In this document: in pieces, positions 4,098-36,913 of the stretch
Numbering within the stretch: position 1 is the stretch's first letter
Layout: each line of letters opens with the position of its first letter
NCBI GenBank assembly: GCA_038245905.1
Contig: JBBRRY010000005.1
Span: 32,001 to 96,000 of the forward strand
DNA: 64,000 nucleotides
Source of the DNA: Thermoanaerobaculia bacterium
Lineage (GTDB): Bacteria; Acidobacteriota; Thermoanaerobaculia; UBA5066
Direction of reading: 5' to 3'
Notes under the pieces: model-generated
The model's input: only the letters and a program-made list of their open reading frames with translations
Databases searched by the model: none
What the model was told of the DNA's origin: nothing
Position numbers and translations under genes: made by a program

Positions 4098-5678
4098 ATG
4101 CCGACCAACGTCATCATGCCGCAGATGGGCGAGTCGATCGCCGAGGGAACACTCACAAAGTGGCTCAAGAAGCCCGGAGACGCCGTCAAGCGCGACGAGC
4201 CGCTCTTCGAAATTTCGACCGACAAGGTCGACGCGGAGATCCCCTCCCCGGGTGCCGGCACCCTCCTCGAGATCCTCGTCCCCGAGGGCCAGACCGTCCC
4301 GATCAACACGGTCGTCGCGCGCCTTGCCGAGGCGGGGGAAGCGGCGGCCCCGGCTCCCGCCGCCGCCGCGGCGGCTCCGCCGCCGTCAACGAAGGAAAAA
4401 GAAGATTCTGCGAATGAAATAGAGAGCTCGACTCCCGCGGGAATGGCGGCGCAGGCTTCAGCGGCTCCCCGCCCGGCGGCTGCGCCGCAGGAAGATTCTT
4501 CGAAGGGTGTGCCGGCTGCTGCCCCCGCGGCACCGCCCGCGCAGGCCGCGTCGCCCGCGCCCGCGCCTTCTCAGCAGTCTTCTGTTCCCTCTTCTCCCAA
4601 GCCCCCTTCTTCCTCCGCTCCGCCGCAACCGGGCGAGTCGCAGGAAGACCTCGTGAAACGCCGCTCGTCTCCCGTCGTCCGCGCGATCGCCGAGGAGAAG
4701 GGCGTCGACATTTCGCAGATCCCCGGCACGGGCATTTCCGGCCGCGTGACGAAGGCCGACATCGAGGGCTTTCTCTCCAGCGCGCCGGCTACCGGCACAC
4801 CGGCCGCGGCGCCGGCCCCGCAGGCCGCTCCTCCTGCCTTCGCGTCTTCAGAGAAGTCTCCCTCTTCCTCCCCCACCCCCTCGGTCCTCGCCGCGCGCCC
4901 CGCCGAGGCCCCCGTCCCGGCGCGCGCCCCCGCGCCCTCGCCAACGGCGCTCGCGTTCCCGTCCGGAAGCAGCATCACGATCGAGCCGATGAGCGCGATG
5001 CGCAAGAAGATCGCGCAGCGCATGGTCGAGTCGAAGCAGACGTCGGCCCACGTCACGACCGTCTTCGAGATCGACTACTCCGGGATCGCGAAATTGCGGA
5101 ATCGCGTCAAGGCGCGCTTCGAGCAGCAGTACGGCACGAAGCTGTCCTATCTGCCGTTCATCCTTCAGGCGACGGTCGCGGCGCTCAAGGCGCGGCCCCT
5201 CGTGAACGCCTCGATCGTGGGCGACGACATCGTGCACCACCGCGAGGTGAACCTCGGCATTGCCGTCGCGCTCGACTGGGGCCTCATCGTGCCGGTCATC
5301 CGGCGCGCCGACGACCTCTCGCTCGTGGGCCTCGCGCGGGCCGCGAACGACCTCGCGGCACGGGCGCGCGCCAAGAAGCTCGTGCCGGACGAAGTGGCGG
5401 GCGGCACGTTCACCGTGACGAACCACGGTTCCTTCGGCTCGCTCTTCGCGACTCCCGTCATCAATCAGCCGCAGGTCGCGATCATGGGCATCGGGGCGAT
5501 CGAGAAGCGGGCGAAGGTCGTCGAGATGCCGGACGGCTCCGACTCCCTCGCGATCAAGACGATGGGCTACATCGCCCTCACGTTCGACCACCGGATCGTG
5601 GACGGCGCCGAGGGCGACACGTTCGTGAACGTCGTGAAGAAGGCGCTCGAAAACGGGTCGTGGCCCGAGCTGGAGTAA
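4098..5678 (+). CDS. Dihydrolipoamide acyltransferase E2
   Basis: Lipoyl domain EISTDKVDAEIPSP, E3-binding SPVVRAIA..GTGISGRVTKAD, catalytic DHRIVDG; long Ala/Pro/Ser linkers. Confidence 0.92.
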   Translation: MPTNVIMPQMGESIAEGTLTKWLKKPGDAVKRDEPLFEISTDKVDAEIPSPGAGTLLEILVPEGQTVPINTVVARLAEAGEAAAPAPAAAAAAPPPSTKEKEDSANEIESSTPAGMAAQASAAPRPAAAPQEDSSKGVPAAAPAAPPAQAASPAPAPSQQSSVPSSPKPPSSSAPPQPGESQEDLVKRRSSPVVRAIAEEKGVDISQIPGTGISGRVTKADIEGFLSSAPATGTPAAAPAPQAAPPAFASSEKSPSSSPTPSVLAARPAEAPVPARAPAPSPTALAFPSGSSITIEPMSAMRKKIAQRMVESKQTSAHVTTVFEIDYSGIAKLRNRVKARFEQQYGTKLSYLPFILQATVAALKARPLVNASIVGDDIVHHREVNLGIAVALDWGLIVPVIRRADDLSLVGLARAANDLAARARAKKLVPDEVAGGTFTVTNHGSFGSLFATPVINQPQVAIMGIGAIEKRAKVVEMPDGSDSLAIKTMGYIALTFDHRIVDGAEGDTFVNVVKKALENGSWPELE

Positions 5679-5685
5679 GCGACCG

Positions 5686-8600
5686 TCAGCGCCTCACCCA
5701 AACGGGCGACGACCACGCCTGCTCGCCGTCGGCCTGGGTGACGCGCACGTACCAGCTCGTCTCCCCCGACGCGTCCGGGGAATCCTGCACGGCGAAGGAA
5801 ACGCGCCGCGTATCCGCCGCGGGGAGCCACGTGACCCCCTGCGGGTCTTTCGGGTCGTAGAGGACGTACGCGCCATCCGGTGCGCCCGGCGTCTGGCGCA
5901 TCCGGACCGCCGCAAATGTGTCCCGGAGGTTCCGGACGATCTCGACGCGGTCGATCGCGGCGGTGCCCTCCACGCGGACCGCGAACGTGAGCGGCCCGTT
6001 CGATTTCAGAATCGAGCCCATCGGAGCGCCGTCCGCCGTGAACTCGAGGACGATCCGCGCGCCCGTCGTCGCGTAGTTCCGGCGGTTCCGGATCGCCTCG
6101 AAGATCGAGGCGCGGTCGAGCGTCTCGGCGAGGACGGCCGTGAGGCCGCCCTCCCCCGGCGAGAGATGATGCGTGTCGCTCGCCCCCATGGCGCCAACGT
6201 GGCGGCCGAGGCGAAGGGCGTCCTGGTACTGGTGGCCCGGCACCTGCCGCCGGCCCTCGCGCGGGTTGCCGTAGAACTCGTACCGCCCGTGCCATGAGGC
6301 GATCTCGAAGTTCGGCTCGAGGGCCTCGTCGTGCGGCGCGGCCGGGTTCCACCTGCCCCAGAGGGCGTGCCCCGTGTGGTGCGGTGACATCACGGCGTCG
6401 TGCTCTTTCGCGTGGCGGTAGAGCTTCTCGATCGTGTCGCTGTCCGGATCCGACGAGCGCAGCGTGCGGTCCGGCCCGTCGTCCTTGTAGAGAAGGACGC
6501 GGTGGCCGAACGCGGACCCCGCCGTCCACTCCCATCCCGAGAGGCTGACGAAGCGGCCGGGCGCGTCGAAGGCGGCCGCCGTCGCGCGGAGCTCGGCAAA
6601 CTCCGACGGCTGGAGGAGTCCCATCTCGGAGTGGTCGCTCACGACCGCGAAGTCGAGACCGAGGCGATCGCGTGAGAGCCAGAGAAGCTGATCGGGGAGA
6701 CCGGTCTTCGCGTCGGAAAGCACGCTATGGCTGTGCGGGTCGCCGAAGTAGACGTGCCAGCGGCCGCCTCCCGCCGTCGCCGTCCGCGGCTCCGGCCCCG
6801 CGGTGCGCGGCTCGAGGTCGGGCAGCGCGTCGAAGTGGTCGGGCGGCGCCGCCGCGATCTCCCCCGGCGTCCAGCCGTCTCGGGAGGCCGTGAGCCGCCC
6901 GAGGAAGACGACGTTGCGGCTCGAGTGCGTGTTGTAGGCGTCGACGTCGCCGCCCTCCACCTTTTCGCCCGGCTTCGGCAGCGCTTGCCCCTCCCACGCA
7001 AGCGCGAGGGACCCGTCGGGCGCAAGAGCCGCCGCGGGAAACTCGTCGCGGCCGGGCGAGAACGTCGTGAGGTGCAGCTCCGGCGACCAGCGTTGTCCGT
7101 CGTGGACGCGCGCCCAGAGGTCGAAATTGTGCGCGCCCGTCGCGTCCGTCCTCCAGACGATCCACGCGCGCCCCGCACCGTCGAGAAAGACGGATGGATA
7201 GTTCTGCGTCTGCTTCCAGTGCCAGTAGGGCTCCTCCGTGTCACGGACCGACTTGTCCACCATGCCGAAGCTGACCTGGCCCGGCAAGGCGGAGGGCGCG
7301 ACGCCGACCGGCGCCGCGAACACGCCGTCCTTGTACGTGCGGACGAAGGCGTCCCCGGAGTGCCGGTCGGCGCGGAAGAGGTCCGCCGAGTGGCCGCGCA
7401 TCGAGTTCCACGCAATCCAGAGCGTCCCGTCCTTCGCGCAGGCGAGGGATGGCGAGTCGTCGATCGCGGCGTCCGACGTCACCGGGACGGGCGCCTCGAG
7501 ACGGGGCGCCGCGCCTCCAGAAAGGCGCGCCCGCGCGACAAAGACGTCAAGGTTGCCGGTCCGCGTCGAGTCCCACGCGAGCCACATGCCGCCGTCCGGC
7601 GGAGCCGCGAGGGCAGGCCGCCGGTCAGTCCCGTCGCTCGCGATCCGCATGGGTGCGCTCCAGCCCGAGTCGCGCGCCGCGACGAGCGAGATCCCGAAGC
7701 CACCCCTCTTGAGGAACTCCCACGCGACCCAAAGTCGGCCTGTCGCATCCAGAGCCACTGAGGGATGCAAAGCGTCTTCCCCCTTCAAAGAAATCCTGTT
7801 CTCCGGCCCCCACCCGTCGCCGCCCCGCGCGCGCGAATAGACCGCCCAGCCGCCCTTTCTCTTGCCGTGCCAGAAGACCCGGATGCGTTTCTTCCCGTCG
7901 AGGACGAGCTTCGCGCCGGACTCCAGGCCCTCGCCGGCGTCGAGACGCTCCTCCTCCGCCCACGCGCTCCCTTTCCGACGGCGGACGACGACGCGGTCGT
8001 TTCCGCCGTCCGTAGACGTGTACGCGCACCAGAGGTCGCCCGCGGCGTCGAACGCGATGGACGGGTACTTGTCGAAACGCCCGGGCTTCGAGAGGGTCGC
8101 GACGCCGTCGAGAGCCGAGGGCGCCGTGGGTATTGGGACGAAGCGCCCGCCCGCTGGTGGCTCGACTCGTCCCGCTTCTCGCAGGAATTCCGCCACGACG
8201 TCCGAGAGGAGGACGCCACCGTCCGCGACCCCTGCCGCTTTCAGGAACGTCTGGTAGAGGTCGCCCCCCTGCGCGATGAAGCTGTTCGTCGCGACGCGGT
8301 AGGTTCGCGCGTCGTCGAGCGGCCGGCCGCCGATCCCCACCGAAAGAAGGCGCGCTCCCGGCGGATGCCCGAGGTCGTACGTGCCGGCCAGGCCCGAAAC
8401 CTGGATGAGACCCCGCTCGAGCGTAAGGCCCTGCTCGAGAAACTCGCGGATCTGCTTTCCCGTCAGCTCGAGGGTCACGAGGGAGTTCACGAACGGGAGC
8501 GCGTCGATCACGTTCGCGCGCGTGACGGGACCGGCGGGAAGGTCGGCCCGGAGCCCGCCCGCGTTCTCGAACGCGACCTCGGCACCCGATTTCAGGCGCA

Positions 8601-9681
8601 TGACGTCGGCAACGAAGTCCCCCAGCGAAGACTCGGCCCGGTAGTCGCGGACGAGGCGCTTCGTGAGCGTCCCCGCGGGCGCGCCGGCGGCTTTCCGGGC
8701 CTCTTCGCGATAGGGCGCGAAAAGTGCGACGACCGCCGGGTCGGGCGGCAGCTCGTCGGACCGCACCTCGAGGAGCTCGCCGCGGTAATCCGCGACGCGA
8801 CCGTTCCGGAGCTTGAGCTTCAGATACCCGAGGCGCGTCCCGTAGCCGTACGTCTGGACGATGAGCGTCCCCGTCTTCGGGTGGACGTAGGGTTTCTCGA
8901 TCCCGCGGTGAGCGTGGCCACCGACGAACACGTCGATCCCCGGGACGGCGCCCGCGAGCGCGATGTCCTCGGCGAAGTCACGCTGGACCTCGGGGCGCGC
9001 CTCGGCATCCGTCTGCATCGGGCCCGTCTTTCCCTGGTGGGCGAGCACGACGACGAGGTCGACCCTCGGGCGCAGCTCCTTCACGGCCGCGCGGACTTCC
9101 TCGACGGGGTCCGTGAAGTCCAGCGACGTGATGCCGGACGGGAGCGCGACGCTGCGCGCGTCCATTCCGATGATTCCGATGACGCCGACTCTCAGGCCGT
9201 CCCGCTCGAGAATCACCCAGGGCGGTGCGTAGCGCTTCCCCGTCGCCTTCTCGTAGATGTTCGCGCCGAGCACCGGGAACGAGGCTCCCCTCATGAGCGG
9301 CGTGAAGACGGCCGAGCCGTAGTCGAACTCGTGGTTCCCGATCGCCATCGCGTCGACCTTCAAGACGTCCCATAGGCGCATGAGCGCCTCGCCCTTCGTC
9401 AGGAACGAAAACGTCCCCGTGAAGAGGTCGCCCGAGTCGAACAGGAACGTCGTCTTCTCGCGTGCGCGGATCCGGTTGATCAGCGTCGAGAGCTGCGCGG
9501 CGCCGCCGAGCTGAGGCGAGCCCGGACGCCAGTAGGCCGGGATCGGATCGATCGCGGAGTGAAAGTCGTTCGTATAGAGGATCGTGACCTCACGCTCGGC
9601 GGCGGCAGGAGGTGCGGCAAGGGAGGAGGAGGCCAGACCCGCGGCGACGAGGAGGCATGAAGCGGCGCGCAGCGATTTCAT
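5686..9681 (-). CDS. Large secreted multidomain hydrolase: 5'-nucleotidase (UshA-like), beta-propeller-like repeats, PHP/DUF3604-like metallohydrolase
   Basis: Signal peptide; TNDFHS, DSGD, GNHEFDYG, GGHAH, NAGGLRA; repeated PSIA.D..G..W..W units; FGDPHSHS, VSDH, GWEWT, ASDTH. Confidence 0.8.
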   Translation of the reverse strand: MKSLRAASCLLVAAGLASSSLAAPPAAAEREVTILYTNDFHSAIDPIPAYWRPGSPQLGGAAQLSTLINRIRAREKTTFLFDSGDLFTGTFSFLTKGEALMRLWDVLKVDAMAIGNHEFDYGSAVFTPLMRGASFPVLGANIYEKATGKRYAPPWVILERDGLRVGVIGIIGMDARSVALPSGITSLDFTDPVEEVRAAVKELRPRVDLVVVLAHQGKTGPMQTDAEARPEVQRDFAEDIALAGAVPGIDVFVGGHAHRGIEKPYVHPKTGTLIVQTYGYGTRLGYLKLKLRNGRVADYRGELLEVRSDELPPDPAVVALFAPYREEARKAAGAPAGTLTKRLVRDYRAESSLGDFVADVMRLKSGAEVAFENAGGLRADLPAGPVTRANVIDALPFVNSLVTLELTGKQIREFLEQGLTLERGLIQVSGLAGTYDLGHPPGARLLSVGIGGRPLDDARTYRVATNSFIAQGGDLYQTFLKAAGVADGGVLLSDVVAEFLREAGRVEPPAGGRFVPIPTAPSALDGVATLSKPGRFDKYPSIAFDAAGDLWCAYTSTDGGNDRVVVRRRKGSAWAEEERLDAGEGLESGAKLVLDGKKRIRVFWHGKRKGGWAVYSRARGGDGWGPENRISLKGEDALHPSVALDATGRLWVAWEFLKRGGFGISLVAARDSGWSAPMRIASDGTDRRPALAAPPDGGMWLAWDSTRTGNLDVFVARARLSGGAAPRLEAPVPVTSDAAIDDSPSLACAKDGTLWIAWNSMRGHSADLFRADRHSGDAFVRTYKDGVFAAPVGVAPSALPGQVSFGMVDKSVRDTEEPYWHWKQTQNYPSVFLDGAGRAWIVWRTDATGAHNFDLWARVHDGQRWSPELHLTTFSPGRDEFPAAALAPDGSLALAWEGQALPKPGEKVEGGDVDAYNTHSSRNVVFLGRLTASRDGWTPGEIAAAPPDHFDALPDLEPRTAGPEPRTATAGGGRWHVYFGDPHSHSVLSDAKTGLPDQLLWLSRDRLGLDFAVVSDHSEMGLLQPSEFAELRATAAAFDAPGRFVSLSGWEWTAGSAFGHRVLLYKDDGPDRTLRSSDPDSDTIEKLYRHAKEHDAVMSPHHTGHALWGRWNPAAPHDEALEPNFEIASWHGRYEFYGNPREGRRQVPGHQYQDALRLGRHVGAMGASDTHHLSPGEGGLTAVLAETLDRASIFEAIRNRRNYATTGARIVLEFTADGAPMGSILKSNGPLTFAVRVEGTAAIDRVEIVRNLRDTFAAVRMRQTPGAPDGAYVLYDPKDPQGVTWLPAADTRRVSFAVQDSPDASGETSWYVRVTQADGEQAWSSPVWVRR
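7782..7795 (+). repeat. Dispersed motif CCTTCAAAGAAATC (exact copy)
   Basis: gtcttcccCCTTCAAAGAAATCctgttctcc inside the nucleotidase CDS. Confidence 0.85.
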
Positions 9682-9727
9682 GAGTGCGGAGTGTATCGGC
9701 GGGCGCGCCAACGCTGTAACATCAACC

Positions 9728-11070: not shown

Positions 11071-11074
11071 GGCG

Positions 11075-11632: not shown

Positions 11633-11697
11633 GGGGCCTCCTCCGTATTGAGATGAGTTCTCGGGCGGATCCTATCGCGTCCCGGTACACTCGGCCC

Positions 11698-12612
11698 GTG
11701 AGCGCGGACGCCCGCCCCCGCTACGGAATCACGCCCCGGCCGGATTGGCTGAAGGTGCACGTGCACGACAACGAGCTGTCGCGCGGCATCGCGGCACTCG
11801 TGGTGGACAAGCACCTCAATACGGTCTGCCAGGAAGCCCGCTGCCCAAATCTCTTCGAGTGCTGGGGAGTCGAAAAGACCGCCACCTTCATGCTCATGGG
11901 TGACGTCTGCACGCGGCACTGCGGCTTCTGCGCGGTCACACAGGGGGCCGGAAAGCCGCTCGATCCCGAGGAGCCGCGGCACGTCGCCGAGGCCGTCAAG
12001 ACGCTCGGAGTCCGCCACGCGGTCGTGACCTCCGTCAACCGCGACGAGCTGCCCGACGGCGGTGCCGCACACTTCGCCGCCACGATCAGAGAGATTCGGA
12101 GCCTCAGCCCCGGCGTCACAGTCGAGGTCCTCATTCCGGACTTCCTCGGGAGCGAGGCCGCGCTCAGGACGGTCCTCGACGAGGCGCCCGAAGTCTTGAA
12201 CCACAACGTCGAGACCGTCGAGCGCCTCTATCGCCGGGTGCGCCCGGACGCGATCTACGCGCGGTCGCTCGAGCTGCTCGCGCGAGCGGCGGGGAGGAGA
12301 GACGAAGAGAAAGAGAAGAAGAAGATTTTTTTGAAGGTGAAGAGCGGCTTGATGGTCGGCCTCGGCGAAACTCGTGAGGAGCTCTCTCGGGCGCTCAGCG
12401 ACCTGCGCGCGGCGGGTGTCGACGTCGTCACCGTGGGCCAGTACCTGCAGCCGCACGCACGGCGGCTCCCGATCGAGCGCTACGTCACCCCGCAGGAGTT
12501 CGAGGAGATCCAGAGAGAGGGAACGGAAATGGGATTCTCGAGGGTGGAATCAGGGCCGCTCGTGCGGTCTAGCTATCACGCGAGAAGGGCGCTTCCCCCT
12601 CCTACCTTCTAA
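11698..12612 (+). CDS. lipA: Lipoyl synthase
   Basis: CQEARCPNLFEC, CTRHCGFC, NHNVETV, KSGLMVGLGE, GQYLQP, PLVRSSYHA. Confidence 0.97.
   Translation: MSADARPRYGITPRPDWLKVHVHDNELSRGIAALVVDKHLNTVCQEARCPNLFECWGVEKTATFMLMGDVCTRHCGFCAVTQGAGKPLDPEEPRHVAEAVKTLGVRHAVVTSVNRDELPDGGAAHFAATIREIRSLSPGVTVEVLIPDFLGSEAALRTVLDEAPEVLNHNVETVERLYRRVRPDAIYARSLELLARAAGRRDEEKEKKKIFLKVKSGLMVGLGETREELSRALSDLRAAGVDVVTVGQYLQPHARRLPIERYVTPQEFEEIQREGTEMGFSRVESGPLVRSSYHARRALPPPTF
12324..12337 (-). repeat. Dispersed motif, 1 mismatch (CCTTCAAAAAAATC)
   Basis: Within a purine-rich stretch of lipA (EEKEKKKIFLKVK). Confidence 0.75.
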
Positions 12613-12618
12613 GAAATC
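12605..12618 (+). repeat. Dispersed motif, 1 mismatch (CCTTCTAAGAAATC)
   Basis: Spans the lipA stop codon; inverted relative to 12324-12337. Confidence 0.75.
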
Positions 12619-12624
12619 CCTCTT

Positions 12625-12858
12625 CTACTCCCCGTCGTTCCCGATCGCCTCGACCGGGCAGGAATCCATGGCCTCCTGGCACTGGGCCTCTTCTTCGGAG
12701 GTCTCCGCCTGTTTCATCACGTACGAGAAGCCCTTGTCTTCCTGGCGCGTGAAATTGGCCGGCGCGGTGACGCGGCAGACGTCGCAGTCGATACACTGCG
12801 TGTCGACGTAAAATTTTCCGGGCGCGTTTTCCTCGTAGCGGTCGTCTTTGTTCGCCAT
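12625..12858 (-). CDS. Ferredoxin (single cluster)
   Basis: CIDCDVC...CP motif; start MANKDDRY. Confidence 0.9.
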   Translation of the reverse strand: MANKDDRYEENAPGKFYVDTQCIDCDVCRVTAPANFTRQEDKGFSYVMKQAETSEEEAQCQEAMDSCPVEAIGNDGE

Positions 12859-12921
12859 CGCAGTGAAAGATAACATGCTGGAATCGGGACTCACTCATCA
12901 GGTTGCATCATTTTAGAGCCC

Positions 12922-17362: not shown

Positions 17363-17366
17363 CCGG

Positions 17367-23140: not shown

Positions 23141-24469
23141 ATGTACCGTTCCGTCGCCCGCGTCGTCGATCTCACCGATCCCGCGCTTAACCAGCTCCGG
23201 GGAGTCTCTCTCGCCGAGGCACGAGCGTGCGTCGCTTCGGGCGACGCTGCGGCCGCCTCCGCTCTCGACGGGTCGTACGCCCTCGTAGGCGTGGACGGCA
23301 TCACCGTGCGGCTCGCGCGTTCGCTGGATCGCCCGCTCCGCTACTTCCTCGCGAAGGAGGCGGACGGCCCGATTCTCGTCGTCGCGGACCGGATCGACGC
23401 CGTGCACGACTGGCTGAAAGAGCACGGGCACGGTGATCAGTTCCACCCGAGCTATACGCGCATGGTTCCGGCGCACCACGTCGTCACGCTGCGGCTCGTG
23501 GGCTGCCCGGATCCGGCGCCAACTTATGTGCGGACGTTCACACCGGCACGAAATGTCCTTCCGCAGGACCTCGACGAGATCGGGCGCCTCTACGTCGGGG
23601 CGCTCGCCGACGAGATCGCGAAATGGGTCGAGTCGATTCCCGCCCACGAGCCGATCGGCGTCACCTTTTCCGGCGGCATCGACAGCGGCGCGGTCTTTCT
23701 CGTCACGCACCACGTCCTTCACCACCTCGGCCTCGGTCCCGCGCGCCTCAAGGCCTTCACGCTCTCGGCCGGGAACGGCCCCGACCTCGAGCAGGCCCGC
23801 TGCTTCCTCGACGCGCTGGACCTCGGTTTCTTCCTCGAGCCCGTCGCCGTCGACCCGGCGTCCCTGAATCCCCGGGAGGCTGTCCGTCTCATCGAGGACT
23901 ACAAGCCTCGCGACGTGGAGTCCGCCACGATGGCGCTCGCGCTCTTGCGCGGAATACGGGAGCGTTATCCGGAGTGGCACTTCGTCCTCGACGGCGACGG
24001 CGGCGACGAGAACTTGAAGGACTACCCCATCGAGGAGAATCCGGAGCTCACGATCCGGAGCGTCGTGAACAACCTGATGCTCTACCAGGAGGGTTGGGGC
24101 GTCGGCTCGCTCAAGCACTCCGAAACGTACACGGGCGGCCAGAGCCGTTCCTCGACGCGCACGTACGCGCCCCTACAGGCATGCGGTTTTGCGGGCTTCA
24201 GCCCGTTCACGAGGCCGCGCGTGATCGCGGTGGCCGAAGGAATTCCGTTCGCCGCATTGACGGAAGGGTCCGTCGAGAAGCTCTACGCGCTGAAGGGCGA
24301 GATCGTCTCGCGGGGTGTCCGCGCGATCACCGGCTTCACGATGCCCGTCTTCCCGAAGCGTCGCTTCCAGCATGGCGCCGGAGGGGACGAGGTGTTCGCG
24401 CGCCTCTTCGGCGACACAGAAGCCCAGTACCGCGCCGCGTTCCTCTCGCGATACATCGGCGCCGCGTGA
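23141..24469 (+). CDS. Asparagine-synthetase-like ATP pyrophosphatase lacking the N-terminal Cys glutaminase nucleophile
   Basis: PP-loop FSGGIDSG, DGDGGDE, SPF; N-terminus MYRSVARV rather than MC; SD GGAGG. Confidence 0.8.
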   Translation: MYRSVARVVDLTDPALNQLRGVSLAEARACVASGDAAAASALDGSYALVGVDGITVRLARSLDRPLRYFLAKEADGPILVVADRIDAVHDWLKEHGHGDQFHPSYTRMVPAHHVVTLRLVGCPDPAPTYVRTFTPARNVLPQDLDEIGRLYVGALADEIAKWVESIPAHEPIGVTFSGGIDSGAVFLVTHHVLHHLGLGPARLKAFTLSAGNGPDLEQARCFLDALDLGFFLEPVAVDPASLNPREAVRLIEDYKPRDVESATMALALLRGIRERYPEWHFVLDGDGGDENLKDYPIEENPELTIRSVVNNLMLYQEGWGVGSLKHSETYTGGQSRSSTRTYAPLQACGFAGFSPFTRPRVIAVAEGIPFAALTEGSVEKLYALKGEIVSRGVRAITGFTMPVFPKRRFQHGAGGDEVFARLFGDTEAQYRAAFLSRYIGAA

Positions 24470-25449
24470 TCGACCTCGAAACCGCGGGCCGCGAGGCTCG
24501 GGACGCGTTCGTCCTCGGCCTCCGGCCGCCGCGAAACGCCGTGGACCCATTCCGTCCGTCCGGATTCTTCGTGGAAGAGGAGCCGCGGCGGGGCGGCGGC
24601 ACGGAGCAGGTCGCGACGGTCCTCCTCACGAATCGCGAGTGCCCGTGGCGCTGCGTCATGTGCGACCTCTGGAAAAACACGCTCGAAGGACCGACGTCGA
24701 AAGGCGCGATCCCGGCGCAGATGCGATTCGCGCTCGAGAGGCTGCCCCCCGCGGCCGTCCTGAAGCTCTACAACGCGGGCAGCTTCTTCGACCGCGCGTC
24801 GATCCCGAAAGACGACCACGAGGAGATCGCATCGCTCGCGCGCGGATTCGAGCGCGTGGTCGTGGAATGCCATCCCGCTCTCGTCGGCGATTCGACGCTG
24901 AAGTTTCGCGATCTCCTCGGCGGCCCGGCGCTCGAGGTCGCGCTCGGGCTCGAGACCGCGCACGCGGAGGCGCTCGAGAAGCTCAACAAGGGGATGACGC
25001 TCGAGGACTTCGAGAACGCGAGCCGCTTTCTCGTGGCTCACGGGGTTCGCGTTCGCAGTTTCATCCTCGTAGGAGTTCCTTTTCTTCGGAGGGAAGAATG
25101 GGCGGAGGCGACCCGCGCGAGCATCGACCTTTCCTTCCGGGCGGGCGCCGAAGCCGTCTCGCTCATTCCCACGCGTCTCGGGAACGGCGCGATGGAGGAG
25201 CTGCAGAGAGAAGGACAGTTCGTCACTCCCACGCTTCGGGATCTGGAGACGGCGCTGGAAGATTTCTTTGAAGGGGAAGACGGACGGGGTGGCGCGCCGA
25301 GTTTCGTTCTCGCGGATCTCTGGGACGCCGACGCTCTTCCGGCGCCTCCCTGTTGCTCGGCCGCCCGCATCGAGCGCCTCCGCTCCATGAACCTCCTTCA
25401 AAGAAATCTTCCTCCCTCTCCCTGCTCGTCGGGCCGCCATCCTTCGTGA
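24466..25449 (+). CDS. Radical SAM protein, RaSEA/TIGR01210-like
   Basis: CPWRCVMC; KLYNAGSFFD, VECHP, LEVALGLETA, LNKGMTLEDF, ILVGVPFL, VSLIPT parallel RaSEA-family motifs; GTGA overlap. Confidence 0.8.
   Translation: MIDLETAGREARDAFVLGLRPPRNAVDPFRPSGFFVEEEPRRGGGTEQVATVLLTNRECPWRCVMCDLWKNTLEGPTSKGAIPAQMRFALERLPPAAVLKLYNAGSFFDRASIPKDDHEEIASLARGFERVVVECHPALVGDSTLKFRDLLGGPALEVALGLETAHAEALEKLNKGMTLEDFENASRFLVAHGVRVRSFILVGVPFLRREEWAEATRASIDLSFRAGAEAVSLIPTRLGNGAMEELQREGQFVTPTLRDLETALEDFFEGEDGRGGAPSFVLADLWDADALPAPPCCSAARIERLRSMNLLQRNLPPSPCSSGRHPS
25261..25274 (-). repeat. Dispersed motif CCTTCAAAGAAATC (exact copy)
   Basis: Plus strand ggaaGATTTCTTTGAAGGggaagac inside the radical SAM CDS. Confidence 0.85.
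25395..25408 (+). repeat. Dispersed motif CCTTCAAAGAAATC (exact copy)
   Basis: CCTTCAAAGAAATCttcctccctctccc; inverted partner of 25261-25274. Confidence 0.85.
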
Positions 25450-30038: not shown

Positions 30039-30042
30039 CCCG

Positions 30043-30330: not shown

Positions 30331-30400
30331 GGAGAAAGTATAGCGAGCCGCTTGACGCCCGCTGGGCTCGCCCGTACCGTCTCTTGCGAGGAGTGCCAAC

Positions 30401-32401
30401 GTGAGACCCTTCCTCCTCTTTCGCCCCGGCGGCGAGGTGCCGGAGGCCATTCGGATTCCGCTCGAGAAGGCGGGCACCGAGATTCTCGTGGCGCGTTCGC
30501 TCGAGGAAGCCGGGGCTCTCCTGCACGCTTCGATGCCGGACGTCCTCCTCATCGTGCCCCCGGGCACGGCGGCGGACGCGGCGAAGCTCCTGGCCCTCCT
30601 CCCCCAGGCGATCGCGCCCCCCTCGATTTTCGTCCTCACCGACGATGGAACTCCGAGCCGTCCGCTCGCGCTCGAGACGATCTCCCGCAACCCGTGGAAC
30701 CGGGCCACGGCGGCGCTCGGGGACGGCTCGGACGACCCGGCCCCTGCGATCTTCCTCTCCCGGGTTCAGCTCACCTCTCTTCTGGAGCTGTGGGAGCAGC
30801 TCGCAGCCGAGGGACGCGACTTCGTAGAACACGCGCTCCGCGCGCTCTCCCTCTCCCTGGACGCGTCGCGCGTCAGCCTCTTCCGCTGGAAGGCGGGCTC
30901 GGCGGTCGCCACTCTTGTGGGCTCGAGCCTCGGGCCAGGGGTCGTCGGGCGCGAGGTCGAGATCGTGCGCTATCCCGAGCTGCGTGCGGCCGCGTCCCGG
31001 TCAGGCCCCGTCCTCGTTGAGGAAATCGACCGCGATCCCCTGATGGGCGAGGCCAAGGGTTTCCTCGAGGGCGCTCCGATCCGGTCCCTGCTCTGTCGCC
31101 AGCTCCCCGGCGAAGGCAGCGACATTTACCTCCACGCGGTCCGCGGGCGTGTGCCGTTCGGCCTCGTGGACGTCGCCCTTCTCGGAGCCGCCGCCCGACT
31201 GCTTCGGGCCGCACACGATCAGGGCCGCCCGAGCGAGCCTCTCGAAAAGAACCCCGACCGCAAGCGTTTGCGCACCGTACATCGCATCCTCAGCGGGATC
31301 CCGGACGCGACCGCGATGGTGGGTCCGACGGGCGAGATCCTGATCGTGAATCCGCCCTTCTGCGCGCTGGTTGGCCGGCTCGAGTCCGAGCTGATCGGGC
31401 TCGACTATCACGCGCTGCTCCGCCCGACCGTACCCGAGGACACGCTCGACGAGCCGCCGCTTTCAGACGGGTCGCCCCTTGCGCGAGAGAGGCTGCGCCT
31501 TCTCACCGGCTCCGGCCGGACGATCCCCGTCGAGGTCATTTCGATGCCGACGCCGGACGAAACGGCGGGACAGGCCGGCTGGTCGACACTCACGCTTCGC
31601 GACCGCCGTATGGAAAACTCGCGCGCGGCCCGCGCGAAAGAGCTCGGCAAGGAGCTTGCCGAGACCTCGTACCAGCTCGACACGCTCGAGACGAGCGTGC
31701 GGGAGGCGGAGGTCATGCGCGCGCGCTTCTGGACGGCGGCGGCCCACGAGCTCCGAACTCCTCTCGCGATCGTCCAGAGCTACCTCGAAGTCGTCCTCAC
31801 CGACCTTGCCGCCGAGGTCCCCGAGCGGCCGACTCAGCTCCTGAAGACGGCCGCGGACGGGCTCTCGCGTCTCGAGCGGCTCATCGCCGACGTGCTGGAC
31901 GCGGCCGTCACGGGCCGGGCGCGGGCCACGCTCCGCCTCGCAGACGTCGACCTGGCCGAGGTCGTCCGCGGCCTTTCGGGGGCTCTCTCGGCAGCGGCGT
32001 TCAAACGCGGACTCCGGCTTCAGGTGGACGTGCCAAAGGGACTGCCCCGCGTCAGCGGGGACCGCGACAAGATCGAGCGACTCCTCACGAATCTCGTCGA
32101 CCACTCCCTGAGAACGACGCCCCGTTCGGACGAACCTCTCCTGCTCGTCGCGTCGCGGGAGGGAGACCGCACCCTGATCCGAATCGTGGACAAGGGACCG
32201 ACGATTTCCTCCGAACGGACAGCCCACCTCTTCGACGACGTCGGGTCGGCGCGCAGCGGGGGCGAATTCGGACTCTCCGTCGCGCGGCGCCTCGCGGACG
32301 CGATGAGGGTCGAACTTACCGCGTATCCCGACCGGGACGGCTCGAACGTGAAGTGCGTCGCGTGGCCGGCCGCGTCCGAAAAGGGCCGGGCTTCCCGCTG
32401 A
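30401..32401 (+). CDS. Cytoplasmic histidine-kinase-like protein (degenerate REC, GAF, PAS, HisKA, degenerate HATPase)
   Basis: H-box AHELRTPL; PAS GEILIVNP; SD GAGGAG; promoter TTGACG-N17-TACCGT. Confidence 0.85.
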   Translation: MRPFLLFRPGGEVPEAIRIPLEKAGTEILVARSLEEAGALLHASMPDVLLIVPPGTAADAAKLLALLPQAIAPPSIFVLTDDGTPSRPLALETISRNPWNRATAALGDGSDDPAPAIFLSRVQLTSLLELWEQLAAEGRDFVEHALRALSLSLDASRVSLFRWKAGSAVATLVGSSLGPGVVGREVEIVRYPELRAAASRSGPVLVEEIDRDPLMGEAKGFLEGAPIRSLLCRQLPGEGSDIYLHAVRGRVPFGLVDVALLGAAARLLRAAHDQGRPSEPLEKNPDRKRLRTVHRILSGIPDATAMVGPTGEILIVNPPFCALVGRLESELIGLDYHALLRPTVPEDTLDEPPLSDGSPLARERLRLLTGSGRTIPVEVISMPTPDETAGQAGWSTLTLRDRRMENSRAARAKELGKELAETSYQLDTLETSVREAEVMRARFWTAAAHELRTPLAIVQSYLEVVLTDLAAEVPERPTQLLKTAADGLSRLERLIADVLDAAVTGRARATLRLADVDLAEVVRGLSGALSAAAFKRGLRLQVDVPKGLPRVSGDRDKIERLLTNLVDHSLRTTPRSDEPLLLVASREGDRTLIRIVDKGPTISSERTAHLFDDVGSARSGGEFGLSVARRLADAMRVELTAYPDRDGSNVKCVAWPAASEKGRASR

Positions 32402-32439
32402 ATACGGAGACCGGCACCCGGCGCGCTTTCGGCATCCTG

Positions 32440-33645
32440 ATGCGTCGTCCCGATGCGCGTGCGGCCGCTTCCGTCGTGCAGCCCGCCGATCAGGCTCGAA
32501 TCGTGGGAGGCGCGGTCCGCGACGCATTTCTCGGCGGGAAGGGCGGCGACCTCGACCTCGTGGCGCCACCCGGCCGGGCCGAACCGCTCGCATGGGCGCT
32601 CGCGAGGCATGCCGGCACTCGCGTCATCGCAGTCGGCGCGGCGCCGAGGCGCGTCCTCAAGGTGCCTTTTCACTCACATGAAATCGACGTCTGGGAGGAG
32701 ACGGGGGATCCTCTCCAGGACCTCCTTCGGCGCGACTTCACCGTGAATGCGCTCTCTTTCTCTCTTCCGGACGGGTTGTTCGCGAGCGCGCCGGGCGCGC
32801 TCGCGGATCTGAGAGCAAAGCGGCTCGCTCCACCTCGCCCGGGCGTCTTCCTCGAGGATCCGCTCCGGGTCCTCCGGGCGGCGCGGTTTCTCGCGGAGTG
32901 GCCGGGATTTCACGTCGCGAGACGAGCAGCGCCGGAACTGAAGAAGGCGGCAAGCCTTCTTCGAATGGTTGCTGCGGAGAGGCGTCTCGTCGAGCTGGAC
33001 AAGCTGCTCGGCGCGCCCCCGGCCGCCAGGATGCGCGGATTGCGATTTCTCGCGCGAATCGGCGCCCTGAATTCCCTTCTAAGCGCGGCGCCGCGCCAGC
33101 GGCGCCGCGGTCTCTCTCTCGTCTCCCGTCTCTCCTCGCCCGACTCGAGGGTCGCCCGTGCCCTTCTCCTGCTGCCTCTCGGCAAGGCCAGAGCCGAAGA
33201 GGTTCTTAGAAGGTGGAAGACCAGCCGGGAGGAGCAGCGGTTGGCGAGCCGGCTCTTCTCGCTTCCTCTTCGCCTCACGGGCCGCCGAAACGGCCCGCCC
33301 ACTCGCCGTGACGTCGCGGAATTTCTCCGCGTCTCTTACCCATTCGAAGAAGAATCCGTCACGTTCCTGCGCGCCGCCGGCGACTCGCGTGCCCGGGCGC
33401 TCGCGGAAGCCGCAGAAAGGACGCGGAGCCGTCCGGCCGCGCTCCGCGGGATCCTCAAGCCGACCCGCCCTCTTCCATTCGCAGAAGTCTCATCACGTCT
33501 CCGCCTCCCGGAGGGGCCGGCCCTCGGAGCCGCTCTCGAGGCCTTCGATCTCGCTCTCGCCTCGGGCGATATTCGCGGCCCCCGCGCAGCGCGCGCCTGG
33601 CTCGACGCGCGGCAGGCGCTTGGAAACCCGCCTTCCGGCTGCTAA
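32440..33645 (+). CDS. Class II tRNA nucleotidyltransferase, probably CC-adding
   Basis: VGGAVRD..DLD, RRDFTVNAL, EDPLRVLRAARF; start uncertain. Confidence 0.8.
   Translation: MRRPDARAAASVVQPADQARIVGGAVRDAFLGGKGGDLDLVAPPGRAEPLAWALARHAGTRVIAVGAAPRRVLKVPFHSHEIDVWEETGDPLQDLLRRDFTVNALSFSLPDGLFASAPGALADLRAKRLAPPRPGVFLEDPLRVLRAARFLAEWPGFHVARRAAPELKKAASLLRMVAAERRLVELDKLLGAPPAARMRGLRFLARIGALNSLLSAAPRQRRRGLSLVSRLSSPDSRVARALLLLPLGKARAEEVLRRWKTSREEQRLASRLFSLPLRLTGRRNGPPTRRDVAEFLRVSYPFEEESVTFLRAAGDSRARALAEAAERTRSRPAALRGILKPTRPLPFAEVSSRLRLPEGPALGAALEAFDLALASGDIRGPRAARAWLDARQALGNPPSGC
33200..33213 (-). repeat. Dispersed motif variant (CCTTCTAAGAACCT)
   Basis: Minus strand tcttccaCCTTCTAAGAACCTcttc; plus-strand variants at 33341-33356 and 33476-33489. 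Confidence 0.6.
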
Positions 33646-33678
33646 CCTAAAGCGTCCTTTCAGCGGACACCAAACACC

Positions 33679-35133
33679 ATGGATCTGACCGAGCTTCTGA
33701 AATTCGTCACGAAGAAGGAGGCGTCGGACCTCCATCTGAAGCCCGGCCGCCCGCCCCTTCTCCGCGTGAACGGCCGCCTCGTCCCCCTGAAGACCGATCC
33801 GCTCTCGCCGAAGGAAATCGAGGACATGGTCCTCCCGATCCTGACGCCGTACCAGCGGGACAAGCTCCAGCAGAACTACGCCGTCGACATCGGATACGGC
33901 ATCACCGGCGTCGCACGCTTCCGCGGCAACATCTACCTGCAGCGCGGCACGTGGACCGCGGTCTTCCGCCGCATTCCCTATCAGATTCCGCAGGTCTCTG
34001 CCTTGAACCTGCCCGAAGTTATCGAGACGTTCGCCGACCTGCCTGCGGGCCTCGTCCTCGTGACGGGCCCGACCGGATCCGGCAAGTCGACGACGCTCGC
34101 GGCGATGGTCAAACTCATCACCGAGCGCCATCCCGTCCACATCGTCACGATCGAGGACCCGATCGAATATCTGTTCCAGGACAACATGGCTTCCGTCTCG
34201 CAGCGCGAGATGGGGACCGACACGGTCTCCTTTCCCGAGGCGCTGCGCAACGTCATGCGTCAGGATCCGGACGTCATCATGGTCGGCGAGATGCGCGACT
34301 GGGAGACGATGTCGACCGCCATCACGGCCGCCGAGACTGGCCACCTCGTGTTTTCGACGCTGCACACGAACAGCGCGGCGCAGACGATCGACCGCATCAT
34401 GGACTCCTGTCCTCCGGCGCAGCAGAACCAGGTGCGCCGCCAGCTCGCGCTCGTCCTCAAGGCGATCATCTCCATGCAGCTCATCGACCGCGTGGACGGC
34501 AAGGGCCTCGTGCCCGTGGTCGAGATCCTGATCAATTCGCCGAAGATCGCGAAGCAGATCGAGACTGGCGAAACGAAGGAGATCAACGAAGAGATCGAGA
34601 GTTCGGTCGCCTATTTCAGGATGCAGTCGATGAACCAGTCGCTGATCGCGCTTCTCGTGAACGGCGCCATCGACGTGAACGCCGCGATGAAGCTCTCGGC
34701 GGACCCCGAAGACCTCTCCCTCAAGCTCCGGAAGCTCTTCCCGAAGATCGAAGAGCGTGGCCGAGGAGGAATCATGTCCCCATCCGCGAACGACTTCTCC
34801 GCGATCACCGAGCTCATGGACGTGAAGCGCCTCTACGAGGAGCAAGAAGACAAGTGGCGGCAACGCCTCGTCGAGAAGGACGAGCTCATCTCGTCGTTGG
34901 AGGCCGATCTCTCGGAGAGGGACCGGATGATCCAGGCCAAGGCCCAGCAGGGAGCCGAGTCCGAGAGCGAGATCCAGAAGGTTCGCACGGACGCCGAGCG
35001 GCAGCGCCAGGAGATGGCCACGAAGGTCGCGCAGCTCAACGACCGCATCCGCGACCTGAACCAGAAGCTCCTCGGCACCGGCGGCTCCCAGGCCACGCCC
35101 GCCTCGACGCCTCAGGGTTTCTTCAAGCGCTGA
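33679..35133 (+). CDS. pilT: PilT/PilU-family pilus retraction ATPase with C-terminal coiled-coil extension
   Basis: ASDLHL, GPTGSGKSTTL, TIEDPIE, RQDPDVIMVGEMRD, AETGHLVFSTLH. Confidence 0.92.
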   Translation: MDLTELLKFVTKKEASDLHLKPGRPPLLRVNGRLVPLKTDPLSPKEIEDMVLPILTPYQRDKLQQNYAVDIGYGITGVARFRGNIYLQRGTWTAVFRRIPYQIPQVSALNLPEVIETFADLPAGLVLVTGPTGSGKSTTLAAMVKLITERHPVHIVTIEDPIEYLFQDNMASVSQREMGTDTVSFPEALRNVMRQDPDVIMVGEMRDWETMSTAITAAETGHLVFSTLHTNSAAQTIDRIMDSCPPAQQNQVRRQLALVLKAIISMQLIDRVDGKGLVPVVEILINSPKIAKQIETGETKEINEEIESSVAYFRMQSMNQSLIALLVNGAIDVNAAMKLSADPEDLSLKLRKLFPKIEERGRGGIMSPSANDFSAITELMDVKRLYEEQEDKWRQRLVEKDELISSLEADLSERDRMIQAKAQQGAESESEIQKVRTDAERQRQEMATKVAQLNDRIRDLNQKLLGTGGSQATPASTPQGFFKR

Positions 35134-36913
35134 GCCGCGCGAGCCAGCGCTTCTTCAGGCGCCGGGCGTCCGCGGACGCACCTGCGAGGTCGTCGATCTT
35201 CCAGACGGAGGCGCGCCGCTTGCCGAGTCGGACGCGGTGCATCCCGAGGACGTCTCGCCGAAAAACCGCCACGTCGACGTGGCTTTCCGGTTTGCGCTCC
35301 GTCTCGAGCCGGGCGACCAGATCTTCTGTCGCGCGGAGCCCGTCGACGGCCACCAGGAGGTCCCCCGCGTTCACTCCGGCACGTTCAGCCGGGCCGTCCG
35401 CGAAGACCTCCGCCACGACGATCCGCCCGCTCTCGGCTTTCGTCCTCCAGCCGAAGGTCGCGCGGACGCGTGGAGCCCGGACGTCCGTCACACCCTCCTC
35501 GGCCTCGGGTGCCTCGCGAAGCCGAAGGCCCGCCGCTCGGAGGAGCCGCGCGAGATCCGGCGTTTCGGTGCCGCGAACGTAGCGATCGAAGAAACCGCGA
35601 ATGAGGGGCCGCGAACCCGCGACGCGCGCGGACGCTTCCTCGACGGCCCCGGCCGGATAGCCCTTTCCCTTAGCGGCGTAAGCCCGGAACAGCCGGCCGA
35701 GGACGTCGTCCAGTCCGCGCCTTCCCTTTGTCGCCCTCCGGAGCGTCAGGTCGAGCGCGAGCCCGAGCAGGGCCCCGCGCCGGTAGTAGCTCTCCGAAAC
35801 GTTCGGCGAGTTCTCGTCCGGACGATAGAAACGGATCCAGGTGTCGAACGAAGCCATCTCGGCGCTCTGGACCTTCCGGCCCGGCGTCTCGAGGTGGCCC
35901 TTCCAGTGGGTCGTCCACTGCTCGAAGGCCTGCGCCTCCGTGAGAAGGCTCGCTCGGACGAGCAGGAGCGTCTCGTAGTAAGAGGTGATGCCTTCGAGCG
36001 CCCAGAGGTCCTTCGTGTGTACTTCGCGCCCGTAGTCGAAGGGACCGAAAACCTCGGGCCTGATCCGCTTCACGTTCCAGGCGTGGAAAAGCTCGTGCGC
36101 GAACAGGAGCAGGGCGTCGCGATACGACTTCTCGGGCCGGAACGCGTGCGGGTCGAGCGCCACCGATTGCGAAGCTCGGTGTTCGAGGCCGCCTCGGGCG
36201 CCAGGCGCGAGGTGAACGAGGAAGAGGTACCGTTCGTACGGGAGGCCGCCGAAGAGCGACGAGGCCTCGCGGACGATCTTCTTCAGGTCTCCGACGATTC
36301 GAGATGGCTCCTCGTTGCCGCTGCCCCAGATGGCGAGCGTGTGCGGGAGGCCCTGGACCGAAAACCCGAACGTGCGGTGCGTTCCGCACTCGAAGGGCGA
36401 GTCCACGAGCTCGTCGTAGTCGGCGGCACGAAAAACGTCGCCGCGGGACGGGAGGGACATCGAGGTCTTCCAGCCCTTCGGGACCCGGAACGCCACCTCC
36501 ACGGGCTCGTCCTTCCTGCCTTCCACGTAGAAGAACAGGTTCGCACCGTTCCCGTATCCGTGCGACGCGTCGAGATGCGACGTCCTCACGCTCAGCTCGT
36601 GGGCATAGACGCGGTAGGAAACGAACATCGGAGAGGAAGAGGGAGATTTCTTTGAAGGTAAAGAGAGGCGCCAGCGGTTCTTCTCCACCTTCACCGCTTC
36701 GATGGGCCGGCCGCCTTGGCTCCCTTCTCTCTTTTCCTTCGCAGAAAAATCTCTTATGTGCCTGGAAAACTCCCTCACGAGATAGGAGCCCGGCGTCCAG
36801 ACCGGAAGGACGAGGTCGAGAGCTCCTGCGCCCCTCGGGTCGATCTCCATCGTGATCTCGTACAGGTGCGTCTCGGGCCGCGGCATCGCGACCGTGAAGC
36901 GTGTCGTGCGCAT
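35123..36913 (-). CDS. M61 glycyl aminopeptidase with PDZ domain
   Basis: PVWTPGSYLVREF, YDELVDSP, GGLEH, HELFHAWNVKRIRP, EGITSYY, PAERAGV..GD. Confidence 0.93.
   Translation of the reverse strand: MRTTRFTVAMPRPETHLYEITMEIDPRGAGALDLVLPVWTPGSYLVREFSRHIRDFSAKEKREGSQGGRPIEAVKVEKNRWRLSLPSKKSPSSSPMFVSYRVYAHELSVRTSHLDASHGYGNGANLFFYVEGRKDEPVEVAFRVPKGWKTSMSLPSRGDVFRAADYDELVDSPFECGTHRTFGFSVQGLPHTLAIWGSGNEEPSRIVGDLKKIVREASSLFGGLPYERYLFLVHLAPGARGGLEHRASQSVALDPHAFRPEKSYRDALLLFAHELFHAWNVKRIRPEVFGPFDYGREVHTKDLWALEGITSYYETLLLVRASLLTEAQAFEQWTTHWKGHLETPGRKVQSAEMASFDTWIRFYRPDENSPNVSESYYRRGALLGLALDLTLRRATKGRRGLDDVLGRLFRAYAAKGKGYPAGAVEEASARVAGSRPLIRGFFDRYVRGTETPDLARLLRAAGLRLREAPEAEEGVTDVRAPRVRATFGWRTKAESGRIVVAEVFADGPAERAGVNAGDLLVAVDGLRATEDLVARLETERKPESHVDVAVFRRDVLGMHRVRLGKRRASVWKIDDLAGASADARRLKKRWLARLSA
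36645..36658 (-). repeat. Dispersed motif CCTTCAAAGAAATC (exact copy)
   Basis: Minus strand ctctctttaCCTTCAAAGAAATCtccctcttcctc; inverted variant at 36736-36751. Confidence 0.85.

Follow-up and report, generated by a model that had tools for sequence, protein, structure and literature searches.

Uptake sequences, repetitive extragenic palindromic (REP) elements, Chi and matS are among the few cases in which a DNA-reading machine visibly shapes a whole genome, and each such recognition word opened a field once its reader had been found. The protein-recognition words matS, SlmA, Noc, parS, KOPS and Chi lie inside coding sequence in tens to hundreds of copies and are short palindromes or polar 8-mers acting singly, while other dispersed repeats include the palindromic REPs, the Rickettsia palindromic elements (RPEs), which are selfish in-frame insertions of 100–150 bp with a conserved sequence of their own, and the dRS3/NIME repeats of Neisseria, in which 20-bp inverted repeats flank variable units in intergenic arrays. 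Here, we describe an element that matches no established type of repeated DNA signal in bacteria, and uptake sequences only in part: a 14-mer, CCTTCAAAGAAATC, lying within longer arms that are mostly set in inverted pairs around unrelated host sequence. It was found in a 64,000-nt stretch of DNA (the window; positions 32001–96000 of contig C5) from an uncultured member of the Thermoanaerobaculia (Acidobacteriota), a lineage of peat, soil and sediment, whose assembly (3.80 Mb in 113 contigs, 67.8% G+C) is labelled G000; other G-numbers denote the genomes of relatives. We propose, at a probability of roughly 0.4, that the arms are putative paired recognition sites for a lineage-specific, sequence-specific DNA-binding factor that would engage two arms at once.

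Among the described systems closest to this one, DNA uptake sequences (DUSs) are reported to occur about every 1.1 kb and to work as single copies, their inverted pairs being closely spaced terminators; the same source (PMC2397512) also has them at permissive protein positions, in highly conserved copies perhaps kept by selection or molecular drive. REPs and their paired form, the REPINs, comprise hundreds of short dispersed repeats, typically two inverted copies with a spacer, and have a long vertical inheritance, as set out in two reports (PMC3337134, 10.1101/2021.07.10.451892). Finally, invertons consist of inverted repeats that flank a short segment, sometimes within a gene, and their size range, as given in the literature (10.1101/2023.03.11.532203, PMC11892184), is comparable with that of the pairs described here. 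Searches of the literature for four forms of the word returned only three unrelated primer matches, and searches on uptake sequences in Acidobacteria and on repeats in Thermoanaerobaculia found nothing relevant.

Abundance of the word and constraint on DNA

The original prediction, made from the letters of the window, was of a single dispersed DNA word embedded in genes and read independently of frame. Its four exact copies, at 7782 (+), 25261 (−), 25395 (+) and 36645 (−), are all present where none would be expected, and not one of 100 dinucleotide shuffles of the window gave a copy. The one-mismatch copies reported at 12324 (−) and 12605 (+) are also there. As for the looser variants, those at 4403 (−), 4566 (+), 4845 (+), 33200 (−), 33341 (+), 33476 (+) and 36736 (+) were recovered with matrix scores of 13.6–20.9, while the one at 4494 (−) scored below 12 and is dropped; two further weak matrix sites, at 38407 (+) and 38423 (−), lie beyond the range of 4404–36751 within which the word had been placed.

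Throughout G000, there are 26 exact 14-mers, rising to 61 copies (30 and 31 by strand, about one per 62 kb) if the sixth position is read as W. Near-exact sites, defined as having at most one mismatch to CCTTCNAAGAAATC, number 186 against 2 for the reversed pattern, and matrix sites, found with a position matrix built from the genome's own copies of the word, number 391 at scores above 20 (about one per 10 kb) against 47 with the reversed matrix. Genes were called with a crude codon-score caller, giving 3051 genes that cover 91% of the genome. By this measure, 123 of the near-exact sites fall within called genes, 58 are intergenic and 5 lie at gene edges; intergenic DNA is thus 3.4-fold enriched, yet the majority of copies are genic, and they are evenly distributed along gene length.

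The genic sites carry the pyrimidine word on the coding strand in 63 cases and on the opposite strand in 60. In either orientation, the sites make use of two frames, and the third, stop-capable one is depleted (4 and 7 sites against 27–29), which makes translational bypass of the arms unlikely. When synonymous codons were shuffled within genes (n = 20), a mean of 14.9 sites (range 7–27) was left against the 123 observed, and shuffling codon order (n = 10) left 2.1. The loss of enrichment under such a correction, which had been named beforehand as a refuting outcome, was therefore not observed. As had been foreseen, the constraint therefore acts on DNA and not on the peptide, given the roughly eightfold excess over synonymous shuffles, the use of two frames per orientation and of both strands, and the third or so of sites that are intergenic; selection at the peptide level is ruled out by the use of several frames and by the intergenic copies. 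The peptide readings previously ascribed to the word were borne out by translation for RISLKGED, EDFFEGED and LLQRNLP and by alignment for KKIFLKVK in LipA.

An assembly artefact, which had been named as a possible refutation, is excluded because all 28 of the other genomes in the genus contain the word, among them assemblies of 2–5 contigs. A polar word of the Chi or KOPS type was also rejected: in G000, the main form shows no strand skew relative to local GC skew (66 vs 66, although GC skew may be a poor guide here, genes being split 951 vs 981), and no relation was found between polarity and gene direction.

Arm anatomy and the inverted-pair rule

The word is part of an asymmetric arm of about 25–45 bp. 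Information content in aligned arms runs from about −14 to +35 around it, the edge being sharp on the inner side, where CCCTCTTCA precedes the word, and ragged on the outer side, where a pyrimidine tract fades outwards. The core TTC-N3-GAA that had been proposed does belong to the arm, but makes up only a small part of it. Similarly, the dispersal, genic location and frame independence of the word all stood, but the single word is not the unit, which is an orientation-locked inverted pair that the original prediction missed. On either strand, this unit reads as a purine tract followed by GATTTCTTWGAAGG-TGAAGAGGG, then 40–330 nt of inner sequence, then CCCTCTTCA-CCTTCWAAGAAATC followed by a pyrimidine tract.

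The orientation rule is nearly absolute. Neighbouring sites less than 1 kb apart in G000 are ordered minus then plus in 86 cases, plus then minus in 11, both minus in 21 and both plus in 17; the minus-then-plus distances cluster at 40–330 nt, and plus-then-minus pairs are all at least 231 nt apart. Among the 352 strong sites, an opposite-strand partner at 30–400 nt lies on the inner side of 223 and on the outer side of 14. Another species follows the same rule: in G020, the first 100 listed places include 11 minus-then-plus pairs against 2. Spacing, in contrast to orientation, is loose: relaxed thresholds give 138 pairs at a median distance of 115 nt (interquartile range 86–157 nt), and the 82 pairs no more than 450 nt apart span distances from 40 to 432 nt.

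Neither inner content nor gene context matters to the pair. The 82 pairs comprise 52 that lie within a single called gene, 19 intergenic pairs and 11 of mixed location, and their inner sequences are mutually unrelated, save in 4 pairs in paralogous Ser/Thr kinase genes, being ordinary host sequence such as the conserved C-terminal part of LipA, the C-terminus of a radical-SAM protein and kinase subdomains. Intergenic arms have a gene start on their outer side in 80 cases and a gene stop in 61, where 60:40 is expected; with this bias at chance and no sigma-70-like hexamers seen by eye, a promoter or 5′-leader element was rejected. Lastly, each arm is held to the consensus independently of its partner. 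Paired arms are identical at 1619 positions, against 1635 (standard deviation 24) when partners are shuffled (z = −0.65), and the W position does not co-vary (identity 0.40 observed vs 0.35 expected), which argues against selection for a stem and against both ends having been copied from one element, and is what separate protein contacts predict. In being asymmetric and paired, the arms differ from architecture sites of the matS, SlmA, Noc, parS, KOPS and Chi kind.

Some further features of the arms were recorded on the side. Tandem extra arms occur at 24–42 nt in G000. A second short motif on the outer side, of the CTCCGAAGC(AAA) or CTCTTCGG kind, follows the pyrimidine tract in about 18–33 of 391 arms, against 1–4 expected; counted as CTCCGAAGCAAA-like, it is present in only about 18 of the 391. 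Arms come in two length forms, GAAATC and GAAAAT. On C1 and the first 1.35 Mb of C2 in G020, these run 34 plus to 15 minus and 23 plus to 36 minus, respectively, with no contrast elsewhere, the longer form is on the minus arm in 8 of 11 listed pairs, and a 437-kb stretch of C2 is free of the exact word; all three observations in G020 are weak and post hoc, and the strand contrast was not seen in G000.

A quite different way to account for the pair rule is single-strand structure, in which the purine and pyrimidine arms would form a long stem on RNA or single-stranded DNA, to be recognized as such, cleaved by an RNase III-type enzyme or held as a latent two-way terminator that translation suppresses. 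The minus-then-plus order does place the purine arm 5′ and the pyrimidine arm 3′ on every transcript, and in the minimum-energy fold of the 25261/25395 pair, the arms are joined in a stem of 20 bp (z = −3.74, which none of 200 shuffles equalled). Two-way terminators are laid out as an A-tract, a hairpin and a U-tract, which the order of purine tract, stem and pyrimidine tract may be said to resemble. Against this, the arms show no co-variation, even at the W position, the 36645/36736 pair folds no better than its shuffles (z = +0.51), and loops of up to 300 nt within essential genes are hard to square with a terminator. Structure alone also leaves the use of one specific word everywhere unexplained, and no known RNA family in Rfam matches the arms. 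We consider a stem improbable as the basis of the signal.

The geometry of the pairs also invites comparison with DNA inversion, the arms then being recombination sites of one global invertase- or transposase-like enzyme that flips or excises the inner segment. Inverted repeats of 25–45 bp flank segments of 40–330 bp here much as in described invertons (10.1101/2023.03.11.532203, PMC11892184). A single shared arm consensus would suit a single enzyme. Transposon ends carry multiple binding sites, of which the tandem extra arms are perhaps reminiscent. However, with some 140 pairs sharing one arm consensus and inner parts that encode conserved essential segments (the LipA C-terminus, kinase subdomains), the system departs from described invertons. 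When inverted in silico, 33 of the 52 intragenic pairs retain an open frame, no different from the 60% obtained with length-matched random segments, so that a recoding inverton finds no support, and the orientation is the same in all orthologues. No flipped, strand-changing or excising joint was found among the joints listed for the contigs of four public runs, one of them probably from the source sample, contigs (as opposed to reads) being liable to hide rare forms. Site-specific inversion or excision is the least probable of the explanations considered, and only a slight chance attaches to it.

Distribution, origin and maintenance of the arms

The word is confined to one genus and its sister genus, bearing out the lineage specificity originally proposed. 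The exact word occurs in 28 of 28 genomes of the window's genus (16–128 copies each) and in five of eight genomes of the sister genus (2–5 copies each), against none in 26 genomes of eight other genera of the family and none in 16 genomes of two other families of the order (including the unpublished G025); the reversed control gave 0 in every group surveyed. A shorter core gave 133, 30 and 23 matches in three sister-genus genomes, against 12, 7 and 2 for the control, and was at control level in two other genera. The sister genus follows the same pair rule, with CCTTCGAAGAA as its commonest form, and for four of five of its sites the orthologous gene of G000 also carries sites. Since orthologous genes carry sites in both genera, the system predates their split, and its copy number has changed several-fold since.

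In the window, the arms are distributed as follows.

4403–4416 (−): degenerate arm in the E2 acyltransferase gene, where it falls in the Ala/Pro linker; matrix score 18.8, a Ser/Lys/Glu patch in translation
4566–4579 (+): weak degenerate arm in the same linker; matrix score 13.6, near the noise level of the control
4845–4858 (+): degenerate arm in the E2 linker; matrix score 17.6
7772–7812 (+): single arm (exact word 7782–7795) in the phosphoesterase gene 5686–9681 (−), read RISLKGED
12283–12346 (−): left purine arm of the lipA pair, made up of a purine tract, GATTTTTTTGAAGG and then TGAAGAGCG; one-mismatch copy at 12324
12595–12632 (+): right pyrimidine arm of the lipA pair; one-mismatch copy at 12605, with the lipA stop codon TAA within the word
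25257–25283 (−): left arm of the pair in the radical-SAM gene 24466–25449 (+); exact word at 25261, read EDFFEGED
25386–25423 (+): right arm of the radical-SAM pair; exact word at 25395, read NLLQRNLP, followed by a pyrimidine tract of variable length
33200–33213 (−): weak arm in the C-terminal part of the PolyA_pol/CCA-enzyme gene 32353–33645 (+); matrix score 13.9
33341–33354 (+): degenerate arm in the PolyA_pol/CCA-enzyme gene; matrix score 17.3
33476–33489 (+): degenerate arm in the PolyA_pol/CCA-enzyme gene; matrix score 20.9
36629–36667 (−): left arm of the intergenic pair, ending 16 nt away from the start codon (ATG) of the M61 peptidase gene 35123–36628 (−); exact word at 36645
36723–36755 (+): right, degenerate arm of the intergenic pair (CCTTCGCAGAAAAATC); matrix score 19.9
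38407–38436 (no strand assigned): two weak word-like sites by matrix, 38407 (+) and 38423 (−), in the lexA promoter, forming a perfect 10-bp inverted repeat, ATTCTAAGAA-N8-TTCTTAGAAT

The genes concerned were identified from Pfam (the 1331-aa phosphoesterase, the radical-SAM protein, the M61 peptidase and the PolyA_pol-family or CCA enzyme of 32353–33645) or, for the E2 acyltransferase of 4098–5678 (+), from its translation, while LipA was assigned by alignment with orthologues of five genera plus recognition of its sequence.

Orthologues of these genes show how single arms have fared. At 7782, eight species align without a gap, two of them with a good word and six with degenerate versions. 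Both arms of the 25261/25395 pair stand in the same places and the same orientation in G000 and in all five relatives aligned. The 25261 arm is kept in five of five orthologues save at the W position, within a loop six residues longer than in outgroups (two relatives have the module duplicated), while the 25395 arm is built, with no change in length, on a motif conserved into distant phyla (MNLxQ to MNLLQRNLP). The lipA arms likewise keep place and orientation in three of three orthologues, with tracts of varying length; the word positions of the right arm are identical in all three, and the left arm adds four residues relative to five outgroup genera, in which its inner flank, KVKSG, is already present. 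Of the intergenic pair, the 36645 arm is well kept in four of the five relatives aligned and degenerate in G019, and the 36736 arm has the same degenerate form in the relatives aligned, one of which (G006) has an extra tandem arm. For the 33200 arm region, no orthologous stretch was found in the five relatives searched. The purine and pyrimidine tracts vary in length among orthologues; on a contig of run X4, the purine tract of the 36645 arm has six extra letters (GAGGAG), so that tract length also varies between samples.

Measured against G000 over seven arms, with four spanning orthologues taken in at 36645/36736, word positions are conserved at 91.6% (369/403) and flanks at 78.6% (4890/6218). 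Relative to proteins of word-free genera, 11 arms have added 0, 0, 0, 1, 1, 2, 2, 4, 4, 6 and 8 residues, and ancestral residues have been reused, namely MNLxQ, KVKSG in LipA, and EGxFQNF, which became IFLEGVFQNF in alanine racemase. Extra arms or pairs are seen in relatives, with 77 nt that include an arm after lipA in G006 and a pair of 19 residues in the RNase R of G053. As these alignments show, arms grow in place from chance proto-sites, through substitution and short slippage at tolerant protein positions, and, once made, are inherited and kept better than the neighbouring sequence. Growth in place and later retention call for a directional force on the DNA, either selection or drive.

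Such a pattern bears on whether the arms are themselves mobile, either as a unit of the kind formed by miniature inverted-repeat transposable elements (MITEs) and REPINs or as short arms that a templated, target-primed process adds at staggered nicks. Sister species differ 5- to 8-fold in copy number, arms are present or absent among relatives, as in the cases from G006 and G053 above, and the sharpness of the inner edge, beside an outer tract that is ragged, would be in keeping with run-off copying from a short template. The inner sequences, however, are host coding sequence unrelated between pairs, several arms replace ancestral residues with no change in length, paired arms are no more alike than arms of different pairs, and there is no excess of pairs at the distances of 0.75–3 kb expected of insertion sequence-like units. 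A MITE is rejected, as the original prediction requires, because the inner part belongs to the host and arms arrive with no indel, as at 7782, or with 1–8 residues.

The likeness to REPs and REPINs lies in hundreds of short dispersed repeats arranged as spaced inverted copies. REPs are extragenic, whereas two thirds of the copies here are genic, and REPINs move whole with their spacer, which is here unrelated host sequence. The Y1/RAYT transposase (PF01797) is absent from G000 and present in only 3 of 24 genomes of the genus, against 11 of 16 outside it (one being the unpublished G025), and with genic copies, no RAYT gene in G000 and spacers that are not conserved, a REP/RAYT system was rejected. 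The MITE and REPIN variants of a mobile origin are thus largely refuted, and a mobile origin of any kind is very unlikely. Like RPEs, the arms are repeats tolerated inside proteins and, like NIMEs, they are inverted repeats around variable inner units; unlike either, they are about 25–45 bp long, often bring no net insertion and enclose part of a host gene.

Uptake sequences are a closer match. An uptake or recombination-biasing signal would cause arm-bearing fragments to be taken up or retained, so that arms spread by molecular drive and rewrite the tolerant parts of genes. With DUSs and uptake signal sequences (USSs), the element shares an over-represented lineage word with dialects (CCTTCGAAGAA prevails in the sister genus), the use of both strands equally, genic sites alongside the 3.4-fold intergenic enrichment, and permissive positions in proteins. 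Its origin in place and its conservation above its surroundings match traits described for DUSs as well (PMC2397512), and copy number differs between species. G000 has a ComEC (Competence domain at C40:17273–18061) and two secretins, but these are common in bacteria not known as selective. A search for the ComP_DUS family gave none in 63 genomes, but its control matched nowhere either, hence the result carries no information. By way of a side observation, five arms lie within a 2.1-kb stretch with no called gene (C40:14479–16586) directly upstream of the comEC gene.

It is in density and in the nature of the unit that the two diverge. One matrix site per 10 kb or so and one exact word per 62 kb compare with DUSs some 1.1 kb apart (PMC2397512), which makes the sites here about ten times sparser by the matrix, and the site is longer, matrix-like and furnished with a purine/pyrimidine tail. 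Moreover, 63% of strong sites stand in wide, strictly oriented pairs around arbitrary sequence, many of them within genes, whereas one DUS is enough by itself (PMC2397512), and the pair rule is without a parallel among DUSs. The element is therefore over-represented as DUSs and USSs are, but differs from them in density and in not being a single-copy unit, a partial fit. The original prediction offered two functions, a DNA-uptake signal or a binding code; of these, a protein-binding code is better matched than a classical uptake sequence by the pair rule, by a density near one site per 10 kb and by the matrix-like degeneracy, and we regard an uptake signal as unlikely.

The region upstream of lexA provided a separate point of comparison. 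The gene at 37757–38371 (−) encodes LexA (LexA_DNA_bind and Peptidase_S24), and across 30 genomes of five genera its upstream region (window 38372–38470) has, by eye, a shared palindrome, CCTTATTTNATAAGG or CCGAATAAAATTAGG, adjoining the start codon, which, from its sequence and position, is probably the LexA box of the family and distinct from the word. The repeat at 38407–38436, in the atypical plus-then-minus order, occurs in G000 and in a few genomes close to it, within the AT-rich promoter of lexA, while 11 other species of the genus have an ordinary minus-then-plus pair upstream of lexA. After comparison of the 30 promoters, the word was rejected as a LexA operator; the arms there are one more ordinary pair.

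Elsewhere in the window, the phosphoesterase of 5686–9681 (−) combines an N-terminal metallophosphoesterase/5′-nucleotidase part and, after a long repeat-like middle, a C-terminal part resembling DUF3604. A PilT/PilB-like type II/IV secretion ATPase (T2SSE; 33679–35133, +) directly follows the arm-bearing PolyA_pol gene and shows very high read depth in all four runs, probably because its conserved domain attracts the contigs of other organisms. At 50001–52000, G+C falls to 0.60 and GC skew to −0.127 beside a tRNA gene (49342–49415, −), and this low-G+C segment could be an acquired one.

A putative reader and its meaning

Taken together, the independent constraint on each arm, the near-absolute orientation rule, the loose spacing, the indifference to content and context, and the long-term maintenance of the arms lead us to favour paired recognition by a DNA-binding factor. 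Such a factor would be restricted to one Thermoanaerobaculia genus and, more sparsely, its sister genus, and would engage two arms as a dimer or as two protomers, bridging a short stretch of DNA. The reader would be a protein rather than RNA or a DNA structure, and it would read pairs. Binding might serve to structure the nucleoid, might be the work of a domesticated transposase or recombinase, or might drive the sites themselves through biased uptake or repair. The broader claim, that the arms represent a novel class of signal, in which orientation-locked pairs of asymmetric recognition arms are imposed by a lineage-specific factor on any sequence, coding or not, falls a little short of even odds in our estimation; identification of the reader may yet show the element to constitute a new class.

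Several observations weigh against paired recognition by a protein. About 37% of strong sites have no detectable partner. Every transcript of a pair reads the purine arm first and the pyrimidine arm second, whichever strand the gene is on, and reading at the RNA level therefore fits the orientation rule equally well. Helical periodicity is absent from the distances of the 138 pairs (the maximum power, 6.2 at 9.9 bp, stays under the 95% null of 7.5), so a rigid DNA loop is not supported, and along contigs the units follow no regular spacing (coefficient of variation 1.21 vs 1.0 for random), leaving nothing to point to a structural lattice. No protein emerged as a candidate reader, no broad phylogenetic profiling having been made. 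A range of 16–128 exact copies within one genus suits a spreading element more than a fixed host regulon, and from the 5- to 8-fold difference between sister species it would seem that self-promoting drive, and not host benefit alone, accounts for part of the spread. Finally, the gene caller missed at least one real gene, making the genic and intergenic fractions approximate.

The signal itself is strong, reproducible in 28 independently assembled genomes and phylogenetically bounded to two sister genera. Because of this boundary, the reader should be findable by phylogenetic profiling and testable by DNA-affinity methods, and the word already offers a practical marker with which to bin or track the lineage in soil, peat and sediment metagenomes. 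It is also a clean natural example of selection or drive at the DNA level overriding codon and amino-acid preferences.

The grammar of the arms is new, with two facing arms at loose spacing around any content, running through conserved enzymes. If paired recognition is correct, conserved proteins such as LipA, alanine racemase, RNase R, Ser/Thr kinases and a radical-SAM enzyme would have been forced to encode arms at their tolerant positions, and these arms would outlast the divergence of genera even as their numbers rise and fall from species to species. Should the reader be a domesticated transposase or recombinase, or a two-site uptake or repair machine, this would amount to a new mechanism, in which a protein drives the evolution of its own sites across the proteome of its host.

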